From assembly GCA_041600715.1 (NCBI GenBank), contig JBFIJM010000003.1, positions 3,345 through 67,344 on the forward strand: DNA of 64,000 nucleotides, in the 5' to 3' direction. The notes beneath the pieces are model-generated. The model did no database searches. It was not told the DNA's origin and saw only the letters and a list, made by a program, of their open reading frames with translations. Below are positions 651 through 2,135 of the stretch, in pieces (position 1 is the first letter of the stretch; each line of letters opens with the position of its first letter). Origin of the DNA: Candidatus Saccharimonadales bacterium. GTDB taxonomy: Bacteria > Patescibacteriota > Saccharimonadia > Saccharimonadales > 2-12-FULL-41-12. The translations under genes were made by a program, and so were the position numbers.

Positions 651-2135
651 ATGTCAGTCGGAAGTGTATTCCAGCTGATCACCAATAATGGTGTTCAAGA
701 TAAGTTACTCATGGCAACCGAGGCATTAAATGCCAGAATCAAAGAAATTATGAAGACGGATGTTGTTGTTAACGAAGACGGGTCAGCTCGGCGAGTAGGT
801 TCATGGAACAGTGACCTCCTAAGATTAGATAGAACACATACTGTATTTGTGGCCGGATATTTTAAACCATTTGCCTCAGCAGCATACGAATATATTAAAG
901 TGCCGGTTTCAGAGGGGCATACCGAGCTTGGAGAGTCTGTGCGATTTAGAATTCCGCAAGTAGGTCAGTTCTATTCTGATATGGTTGTACATATACAACT
1001 GCAAGGGTTAAGAGCAGTTAGTGCCCTAGACAAAGTCAGGTACGCGGCCTTTCTTGGGCATAAAATATTCCCAAAAGTTGCGTTTTCTATCAACGGCAAC
1101 CCTATTGACGATTATACAACCGACGAATATAATGCATATTGGCAATTTAAATTGCCAGCGCATAAACGTGCAGGATGGTTAAAAAATGTTGGTCAGGAAA
1201 TACCATCGCTCGGGTACTTAACACCAGACCCAACAACAGATGAATTTAGAGAGTATAGATGGATAGGAACCGGAAATCAAACATTTAAGAGAGAACATAC
1301 TACAGTTGATCTATGGGTACCTTTATTATTTTGGTTTAAAGATATGACTCAAGCCATTCCTAGTATGGTGATTCCGTATGGTCAAACATATGTAGACTTA
1401 AACTTAGCTAAGGCATCCGACCTGATTGCGTTTGCTAATTATGGAGGTGGTGGTGCGTATACATCTCCTAGCGTTAAGATCTGTAATTTATACGTTAACA
1501 ATATATTTGTGTCACCTGAACTAACTGATTTGTTCTTGAGCAAATTTGGATTCTCCCTAATAAGAGTCCATAAGAGACACACAAAGATGTTAATCTCTCC
1601 AGTAGGAACAGAGCGGCTGAATAACTTAACTTGGCCTATTGAGACAATGTATCTATGTTTTCGTCCCAGAGCAAACTTAATGGATAGTCAAGCATGGTAC
1701 AAATGTATGGCCCTAACCGACGCCGAAGTACCCACTCCAGTAGTGACCGGAGGACTCGCCCCAACAATATCCATCAACAACATTAACTATTACACTGAGA
1801 CACCTGTAGTTACCGAGTTACAACTGAAGGCCCATGACGTTGAAATTTATAAGGAATTTCCGAGCGCCTTCTTCAACCAGTATATTCCTTTTATCTTTGG
1901 TAACTATATTAGCACACCTACTGATGATGGGTGGTTCATGATGAATTTCAACATGCGTCCTGGTGATAGGAATCCAAGCGGGCATTTTAACCTGTCTCGG
2001 GCTCGAGAATTTTATTTGAGTTACAAATCGTCGTCGATTTCTCAGGCTAACCCTTCTGATTTGACAGTATTGGCCGATGCATTAAACTTTTTAGTGGTCA
2101 AAGGGGCGTCGGCCGTTCTTAAATTTAGCACATAA
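651..2135 (+). CDS. major capsid protein, ASFV p72 (B646L)-like double jelly-roll
   Basis: Three blocks match p72 as I recall it. MSVGSVFQLITNNGVQDKLLMATEALNARI matches MASGGAFCLIANDGKADKIILAQDLLNSRI. LYVNNIFVSPELTDLFLSKFGFSLIRVHK matches LYINNLFVTPEIHNLFVKRVRFSLIRVHK. PSGHFNLSRAREFYLSY..NFLVVKGASAVLKFST matches PSGHINVSRAREFYISW..NFLLLQNGSAVLRYST. ATATACA abuts the ATG. Confidence 0.9.
   Translation: MSVGSVFQLITNNGVQDKLLMATEALNARIKEIMKTDVVVNEDGSARRVGSWNSDLLRLDRTHTVFVAGYFKPFASAAYEYIKVPVSEGHTELGESVRFRIPQVGQFYSDMVVHIQLQGLRAVSALDKVRYAAFLGHKIFPKVAFSINGNPIDDYTTDEYNAYWQFKLPAHKRAGWLKNVGQEIPSLGYLTPDPTTDEFREYRWIGTGNQTFKREHTTVDLWVPLLFWFKDMTQAIPSMVIPYGQTYVDLNLAKASDLIAFANYGGGGAYTSPSVKICNLYVNNIFVSPELTDLFLSKFGFSLIRVHKRHTKMLISPVGTERLNNLTWPIETMYLCFRPRANLMDSQAWYKCMALTDAEVPTPVVTGGLAPTISINNINYYTETPVVTELQLKAHDVEIYKEFPSAFFNQYIPFIFGNYISTPTDDGWFMMNFNMRPGDRNPSGHFNLSRAREFYLSYKSSSISQANPSDLTVLADALNFLVVKGASAVLKFST

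Follow-up and report, generated by a model that had tools for sequence, protein, structure and literature searches.

The window analysed here is a DNA stretch of 64,000 nt, which carries at 651..2135 an open reading frame (ORF) of 494 aa encoding a double jelly-roll capsid protein of the family of p72, the major capsid protein (MCP) of African swine fever virus (ASFV). Within this family the ORF is a compact paralogue that belongs to a clade, here termed clade A, from which p72 itself is excluded. With a probability of roughly 0.68, we consider the ORF to encode a structural, crownless capsomer protein that would serve as a second capsomer beside a longer MCP encoded outside of the window. The capsid protein gene and its main parts are located as follows.

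651..2135, plus strand: compact p72-family double jelly-roll capsid protein, clade-A paralogue (assigned by ORF, Pfam, PDB, AlphaFold2 (AF2), Foldseek, and tree)
651..875, plus strand: N-terminal arm/base segment (aa 1-75), with residues 1 to ~26 highly conserved family-wide, p72 included
879..1436, plus strand: jelly roll 1 (~aa 77-262; AF2 strand pattern and Pfam Capsid_N)
1470..2132, plus strand: jelly roll 2 (~aa 274-494; AF2 and Pfam Capsid_NCLDV) with FSLIRVHK, PSGHFNLSRAREFY, and the C-terminal NFL...SAVLKFST tail

The ORF starts with an ATG at 651 and its stop codon ends at 2135. Both Pfam capsid domains were recognised, namely PF16903 Capsid_N (36.1 bits, cut-off 24, covering aa 77-286) and PF04451 Capsid_NCLDV from nucleocytoplasmic large DNA viruses (NCLDV; 48.3 bits, cut-off 34.8, covering aa 376-485). 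In a phmmer search against the PDB, the faustovirus MCP 5j7o ranked on top (E=1e-85, 291 bits), accompanied by the ASFV p72 entries 6ku9 (E=1e-69) and 6l2t (E=8e-69), while the following match, Vp54 of Paramecium bursaria chlorella virus 1 (PBCV-1), was obtained at 8e-7 only. Thus the similarity greatly exceeds what chance would produce, and it is of the p72 type specifically. Jelly roll 2 is the top-scoring block of the phmmer alignment with both p72 and the faustovirus MCP. In a MAFFT alignment, global identity of the ORF is 35% to p72 (166/478) and 37% to the faustovirus MCP (176/474), compared to 40% between the latter two. The p72 sequence used for the comparison was verified against PDB 6ku9 (646/646 residues identical to its residues 48-693), and the faustovirus MCP sequence was reconstructed from PDB alignments. 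A signature-peptide search for sequences from ASFV, abalone asfa-like virus (AbALV), or faustovirus among the 285 retrieved proteins found none.

These matches bear out the original prediction, made from the DNA sequence alone, of a 494-aa p72-type capsid ORF: the best hits fall into the Asfarviridae-like clade and the alignment to p72 is significant. The predicted agreement of about 15 of the first 33 residues with p72 was counted as exactly 15/33 (M, G, F, L, I, N, G, D, K, A, L, N, R, I, and I), and the block FSLIRVHK is an exact match in the phmmer alignment. In case of the C-terminal block, PSGH.N.SRAREFY, NFL, and SAVL..ST are indeed common to both proteins, except for the proposed GSAVL, since the ORF reads ASAVL where p72 has GSAVL.

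The AF2 monomer model, computed from an alignment of 53 sequences, reached a mean predicted local distance difference test score (pLDDT) of 82.4 and a predicted template modelling (TM) score of 0.79. In this model, a double jelly roll extends from residue ~77 onwards, with a beta-rich course over aa 77-490, and confidence is low for the N-terminal ~75 residues. As expected, the low pLDDT of the N-terminal arm in a monomer fits an arm that would be ordered only in the assembly. TM scores of 0.6-0.79 were obtained between the model and solved or predicted MCPs of NCLDV. Among viral models, Foldseek listed ASFV B646L first (3.5e-49) and a 502-aa “MCP homolog” of AbALV second (2.8e-45), and among solved structures the faustovirus MCP (1e-46) and p72 (2e-39) were on top, with other NCLDV MCPs about 20 orders of magnitude weaker (~1e-26 vs ~1e-46). 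The N-terminal arm pattern M..GG.F.LI.N.G..D...A and the C-terminal NFL....SAVL..ST tail are both present in the ORF. Residues M1, S2, G5, F7, L9, N12, G14, Q16, D17, A22, and L26 are nearly invariant across the family, and all 37 family-invariant residues are retained in the ORF, invariance being defined by an alignment that includes the ORF. In summary of parts, the lattice-building elements of a p72-family protein are intact and the surface decoration is absent.

The latter becomes evident from the positions of the missing residues. It had been predicted that about 150 aa, presumably exposed loops, are lacking relative to the 646 aa of p72, which agrees well with the difference of 152 residues. 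In the MAFFT alignment of 143 family representatives, the additional ~152 residues of p72 fall into four segments (118-172, 241-300, 375-399, and 502-518). These coincide with the published exposed regions (ERs) ER1-ER4, which form the crown and head of the capsomer (aa 125 onwards, 241-307, 378-393, and 502-523; PMC11860850, PMC9950752), and thus the residues missing from the ORF are exposed loops. In the alignment, all four sites of the ORF are in a reduced state.

1008..1040, plus strand: ER1 site (aa 120-130), 11 residues in the ORF, a 55-aa insert in p72 (118-172)
1212..1250, plus strand: ER2 site (aa 188-200), 13 residues in the ORF, a 60-aa insert in p72 (241-300)
1428..1472, plus strand: ER3 site (aa 260-274, NYGGGGAYTS loop), 15 residues in the ORF, 23 more in p72 (375-399)
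1722..1772, plus strand: ER4 site (aa 358-374), modelled by AF2 as a tight beta-hairpin, 17 residues in the ORF, 17 more in p72 (502-518)

The ORF lacks all four crown and head regions of p72 and is in the minimal state at every ER site. A comparison of groups, given as median residues per site, reveals how the loop sizes are distributed over the family. Clade B denotes the clade of the longer MCP copies dealt with below.

Clade A, compact (ORF included): ER1 11, ER2 13, ER3 15, ER4 ~15
Clade A, ~590 aa: ER1 11, ER2 13, ER3 15, ER4 ~111
Clade B, long partners: ER1 18, ER2 21, ER3 23, ER4 ~106
Clade B, compact (503-527 aa): all four sites small
ASFV group: ER1 69, ER2 73, ER3 40, ER4 26
Faustovirus group: ER1 65, ER2 40, ER3 55, ER4 38

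ER1-ER3 sizes are nearly invariant within clade A, and a large crown at ER1/ER2 is peculiar to the branches of ASFV and faustovirus. The ~590-aa class of clade A corresponds to the compact form plus one insertion of ~90-100 aa after residue 368 (window ~1752-1757), and the long copies of clade B (~600-670 aa) possess one module of ~100 aa at the ER4 site. Homology between the ER4 modules of ~590-aa clade-A proteins and of clade-B partners was not detectable (BLASTP E>=0.08; hhalign probability 0.1%). Consequently, the ER4 loop was expanded independently in clades A and B, and these modules do not bear on the question of whether compactness is ancestral or the result of loss. The family can thus be described as a constant jelly-roll core with four loop sites, each enlarged independently. 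From natural crownless variants like the ORF it can be seen which portions of p72 the fold can do without. Due to the fact that the ERs of ASFV carry neutralising epitopes and the CypA-binding site (PMC13096511, PMC9950752), such variants are relevant to the engineering of p72 antigens. Family-wide, the jelly-roll-2 hairpin at residue 368 of the query is a recurrent insertion hotspot.

Compact proteins of this kind are abundant. The identical 494-aa protein is already public in NCBI, on a 69.5-kb contig, and in Logan, where a 5.7-kb contig of run SRR29257383 (L001) matches the window with 0 mismatches over an overlap of 2,493 nt and reaches 3.2 kb further upstream. Family matches amounted to 1,153 in a 90%-clustered database and, at 50% identity, to 957 representatives at E<=1e-3 and 434 at E<=1e-30. 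Lengths range from ~470 to 890 aa; the class of ~480-540 aa is the dominant one in the closest relatives, and another peak is seen near 588 aa. The ORF hence belongs to an abundant, already-sequenced clade of compact paralogues and is not a uniquely minimal p72 orthologue. Of the predicted divergent lineage with a minimal MCP, the asfarvirus-like lineage stands, and the compactness loses its special status, given that compact proteins are common and AbALV has one of 502 aa. With hundreds of such sequences already public, the picture of giant-virus diversity is unchanged.

Contigs of close relatives contain a second gene with Capsid_N and Capsid_NCLDV domains, which encodes 602-615 aa and is located 2-9 kb upstream on the opposite strand. 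This arrangement was found in 5/5 of the closest relatives with context. The long copies are encoded, in all cases on the minus strand, at the following positions of the relatives' contigs.

L002, 3252-5096, minus strand
L004, 5062-6867, minus strand
L043, 2959-4776, minus strand
L006, 5327-7165, minus strand
L007, 3258-5090, minus strand
L090, 6051-7877, minus strand

A search of the fetched loci with a p72-family hidden Markov model (HMM) identified pairs at most 10 kb apart in L002, L004, L006, L007, L008, L013, L040, L041, L043, L083, and L090. Further pairs on the same contig or in the same metagenome-assembled genome (MAG) are L011 and L067, L014 and L061, L009 and L080, as well as L030 and L060, and genes of same-contig pairs can be 14-53 kb apart on other contigs. 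Nine more compact/long pairs are suggested by equal longest-contig sizes in two protein searches. In L091, the long copy is apparently split into a C-terminal part (387 aa, 1355-2515, minus strand) and a separate N-terminal fragment (~4960-5052, minus strand), with a GIY-YIG endonuclease ORF (3788-4513, minus strand) situated between the parts, an arrangement reminiscent of faustovirus and kaumoebavirus, whose MCP genes are invaded by introns.

The two types of genes separate in a neighbour-joining (NJ) tree of 79 sequences, which is distance-based, has no outgroup, and does not include AbALV. Rooting with PBCV-type MCPs was rejected, because at ~15% identity the faster clade A would be prone to long-branch attraction under NJ. 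The ORF groups with compact copies and the ~590-aa forms in clade A (recovered in 89/100 bootstraps), and p72, the faustovirus MCP, and 12/12 co-resident long copies are placed outside of clade A in 100/100 bootstraps. The branching order of the same genomes is mirrored in clades A and B. In all 12 two-copy genomes, the long copy is nearer than the compact copy to p72 (35-44% vs 25-36%) and to the faustovirus MCP (40-50% vs 29-40%), and usually it is even nearer to the faustovirus MCP than to the compact copy of its own genome. The ORF of the window (34% to p72, 36.5% to the faustovirus MCP) exhibits the clade-A profile. Mean identity is 43.5% for clade A vs 50.9% for clade B, indicating that the clade-A copies evolve faster. 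Both paralogues and p72 alike show conservation of the N-terminal ~26 residues and of the C-terminal tail.

Since it falls into another clade than p72, the ORF is probably not a p72 orthologue, but a paralogue or, at best, a distant co-orthologue. On this point the original prediction of a minimal MCP is not supported as stated, since clade A excludes p72, the faustovirus MCP, and the longer MCP copies. The MCP L034 of GVMAG-S-3300005056-23, a giant virus MAG (GVMAG) reported as the most basal asfarvirus (Karki et al. 2021), is placed between clade A and core clade B. As far as an unrooted tree allows, this is consistent with a duplication that would predate the radiation of ASFV and faustovirus. 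It was pointed out before that an MCP paralogue may be mistaken for an orthologue in incomplete NCLDV assemblies (Aylward et al. 2021; PMC8575486). Likewise, the best MCP hit in an asfarvirus-like assembly may be a paralogue, and unless both copies are taken into account, placements based on the MCP, or claims that an MCP is minimal, may be misleading.

From these observations the following role of the protein can be outlined. Both jelly rolls are kept, as are the arm at the N-terminus and the tail at the C-terminus, and with them the lattice-building parts of p72 are preserved. Considering the minimal state at ER1-ER4 of the predicted monomer, the trimer would be a smooth, crownless pseudo-hexamer. 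In ASFV, the base domain of p72 contacts p17 and M1249L, the latter being a capsid skeleton or zipper protein that binds p72 capsomers (PMC9950752). A homologue of M1249L is encoded in the window, and the protein may dock onto the sub-capsid network used by p72 via the N-terminal base that the two have in common. It would then form a second, undecorated capsomer species in an icosahedral shell and co-assemble with a longer MCP from outside of the window. More tentatively, and with doubts prevailing, environmental asfarvirus-like capsids might in general use two p72-family capsomers encoded by neighbouring genes, a crownless one of type A and a turreted one of type B with the ~100-aa module at ER4, or this virus might possess an entirely crownless shell. 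To our knowledge, a conserved two-capsomer system of the p72 family has not been explicitly described before.

Several observations weigh against this reading and are taken together here. Scans with the p72-family HMM and Pfam found no second MCP-type gene in the 64-kb window, and none occurs in the 3.9 kb upstream of the MCP start that are covered by L001 (3.2 kb past the window start). Where the five closest relatives carry their long copy, the virus of the window has unrelated small ORFs instead. Gene order downstream (window 651-8066) is collinear with L002 and L004, and upstream only an adjacent 212-aa gene is common to them. A search with the 615-aa copy of L002 gave no hit on a contig of 69,527 bp and no candidate attributable to this virus, and a look-up of the last gene of the window returned no record. 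Moreover, compact clade-B proteins of 503-527 aa exist with no second copy in view, so that a crownless protein may well serve as sole MCP. Finally, the NJ tree is distance-based and lacks an outgroup, and the faster evolution of clade A could exaggerate its separation. Regarding the candidates that were considered as the long copy of this virus, P0373 and P0380 were rejected as they derive from other samples, P0291 and P0296 as they derive from other runs, and P0290 of the neighbouring run SRR29257522 due to its GC content (48% vs 38%) and the absence of nucleotide similarity to the window.

The main alternative is that the ORF is the sole MCP, i.e., the functional equivalent of p72 with trimmed loops, and that the whole capsid consists of crownless capsomers. 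A single p72-family gene is seen in the stretch that extends from 3.9 kb upstream of the ORF to 62 kb downstream of it, the syntenic slot lacks the long copy despite the conserved downstream order, the N-terminal arm and the C-terminal tail of the ORF are intact, and compact clade-B proteins without a second copy within +/-10 kb (e.g., L016, L029, and L022) suggest that crownless sole MCPs are possible. If the virus indeed dispensed with a long copy, its protein would represent a minimal natural p72 scaffold, of use in telling the p72 parts required for assembly from those that serve antigenic surface functions. Nevertheless, wherever enough context is available, the clade-A gene is accompanied by a clade-B gene, as observed directly for 13 pairs and as suggested by the nine pairs deduced from contig sizes; solely L019, with partial context, shows no clade-B partner. 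The clade-A proteins also change more rapidly than their partners do, an unusual feature for a sole MCP. Same-contig pairs 14-53 kb apart and asfarvirus-like genome sizes of 120-580 kb (PMC8005611) imply that the 66 kb in view leave room for a second copy beyond. On balance, a sole MCP appears unlikely, and we favour the reading as one of two capsomer proteins.

Double jelly-roll proteins act as scaffolds in poxviruses, and faustovirus has a double shell. A p72 paralogue could accordingly be used off the outer shell, either as a transient assembly scaffold similar to poxvirus D13 or in an inner protein layer. The loss of all surface decoration and the faster evolution compared to the partner would agree with such a use, and poxvirus 62-kDa/D13-type proteins occur among the distant Foldseek matches. 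The parts of the capsomer base (N-terminal arm and C-terminal tail) are, however, as strongly conserved as in true MCPs, and sequence and fold are much nearer to virion MCPs than to D13, which renders a use off the outer shell highly improbable.

Giant-virus insertions in eukaryote assemblies are well documented (e.g., PMC10640383), but an endogenous or relic insertion with the ORF as a non-functional remnant was rejected as next to negligible on the grounds of densely arranged, intact long ORFs on both strands without cellular-type genes or broken frames and of the independent re-assembly of the same sequence from SRR29257383 with 0 mismatches, in addition to a full-length MCP with all family-invariant residues and the enrichment of a TATA element at start codons.

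A comparison to named systems delimits the compact capsomer protein further. ASFV p72 (B646L; 6ku9, 6l2t) has the family and fold, N-terminal arm, both jelly rolls, FSLIRVHK, and C-terminal blocks in common with the ORF, and its partner M1249L has a homologue in the window, but p72 is 152 aa longer, belongs to a separate clade, and bears loops at all four ERs where the ORF has short turns. The faustovirus MCP (5j7o) is the closest solved structure (37% identity) with the same conserved ends. It differs by its length of 645 aa, the inserts at these four sites measuring 54, 28, 39, and 18 aa, by clustering with p72 and the long clade-B copies, and by its gene, which is fragmented by introns (PMC12724278), whereas the ORF is continuous. 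The 502-aa protein of AbALV (A0A5K7XZC0) is likewise a compact p72-type protein and ranks second among the viral matches by fold (E 2.8e-45, TM 0.78/0.76), yet with only ~26% identity per alignment column to the ORF it is not a close clade-A member. AbALV has two MCP genes, one long and one short (PMC7067878), comparable to the two-copy loci of the relatives of the ORF, and the 502-aa entry is presumably the “shorter” ORF125. Most similar are the compact MCPs of Asfarviridae MAGs (e.g., GVMAG-S-3300009702-144 and GVMAG-M-3300009068-46) and the metagenomic proteins P0002-P0007 and P0022, which belong to clade A, share 40-58% identity with the ORF, and agree in length class and minimal loops, with the downstream order conserved in L002 and L004. 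In contrast to the virus of the window, with unrelated small ORFs at this position, these genomes possess a clade-B long copy on the opposite strand, at a distance of 2-9 kb upstream.

The window as a whole (~38% GC) is densely coding with long intact ORFs on both strands, and neither cellular-type genes nor interrupted reading frames were seen in the ORF list and the Pfam scans. Besides the capsid protein gene, the following core genes were assigned.

17980..19110, minus strand: A32-type packaging ATPase (Pfam Pox_A32, 8.4e-07)
20962..24711, plus strand: M1249L homologue of 1249 aa (phmmer against PDB 8xy6_I, E=6e-20, aa 814-1205)
39029..42721, plus strand: C962R-type archaeo-eukaryotic primase (AEP) fused to a D5-like helicase (Pfam AEP_C962R 6.1e-22, PriCT_2, D5_N, and DUF5906)
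49868..51100, plus strand: VLTF3-like late transcription factor (Pfam Pox_VLTF3, 4.8e-22)

Further Pfam matches comprise an SF2 helicase, a poly(A) polymerase, an ERCC4 nuclease, TFIIB, an FtsJ methyltransferase, a ubiquitin-conjugating enzyme, and a RING protein; matches to TBP-like, NUDIX, RPB6, and A32 are weak. For most of the annotated genes, ASFV counterparts by name exist. PolB, RNA polymerase subunits, and TopoII were not detected in the 64-kb window. In PDB searches of large Pfam-negative ORFs, an ORF of 1496 aa had no match, ten unannotated ORFs (searched as a concatenate of 4,928 aa) yielded only low-complexity Gly-rich noise, and no homologue of p17, p49, penton, or pp220/pp62 could be named among the unannotated large ORFs of the window. 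A scan of IMG/VR with the MCP alignment revealed 77 loci, many of which originate from GVMAGs, with GVMAG-S-3300009702-144 on top (49% identity). At least 15 GVMAGs among these loci appear in Table 1 of Karki et al. (2021), where they are classified as Asfarviridae by multi-marker phylogeny. Gene content and relatives therefore support the assignment of the window to an uncultivated asfarvirus-like giant virus (order Asfuvirales) distinct from ASFV, as had been predicted on the basis of ASFV-class genes with low identity: the M1249L homologue, the C962R-type primase, the core genes, and the Asfarviridae-classified MAG relatives all point in this direction. The species ASFV itself is ruled out by the MCP identity of 35% and the match of the M1249L homologue at only E=6e-20.

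An A/T-rich element adjoins the start codon of the capsid protein gene, and comparable elements were found next to other start codons.

636..650, plus strand: A/T-rich TAATATACA element adjoining the start codon, putative late-type promoter/initiator (from the sequence)
2151-2165, 10262-10276, 20947-20961, and 26575-26589 (the last on the minus strand): examples of other start-abutting elements containing TATA

TATA occurs within -15..-1 in 26/40 genes of the window, compared to a background of 11% for all ATGs and 30% for AT-rich 15-mers. Similar (T/A)ATATAC elements precede the ATG in both paralogue types. This is suggestive of a common promoter/initiator class for both, which might be of the late type with very short 5' leaders.

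Several genes of the window deserve mention apart from the capsid. A 258-aa ORF (47463-48239, plus strand) strongly matches cobalamin adenosyltransferase (Pfam Cob_adeno_trans, E=2.7e-37), an unusual metabolic gene for an asfarvirus-like genome. The 1496-aa ORF (10277-14767, plus strand) shows up to 57-59% identity in tblastx segments to regions near the MCP of L043, L006, L007, and L013; with counterparts of ~1430-1456 aa in L004, L083, and L091, it represents a large conserved protein of the lineage. A WLM-type metalloprotease-like ORF is located at 9273-9941 (plus strand), and a WLM gene is also situated near the MCP pair of L083. A pentapeptide-repeat protein is encoded at 31508-32458 (minus strand; Pfam E=5.7e-15). 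ORFs flanking the MCP gene are rich in low-complexity repeats (2166-2609 and 19652-20938 on the plus strand, 4625-4918 and 4957-6063 on the minus strand). They comprise VDSPMGST repeats, a lysine/alanine-rich AAKKP protein with a weak histone-H1-like HC2 match, an extended Gly/Arg tract, and repeats of EPHD and QQA; the Gly-rich ORF, of 368 aa, is kept in relatives. Near-perfect short tandem arrays (units of 7-30 nt in 4-10 copies) are found mostly in intergenic spacers.

3090-3155, 25144-25249, 27554-27671, 46651-46722, 51102-51177, and 59289-59414 (the last with 20 nt x 6.3): tandem repeat arrays

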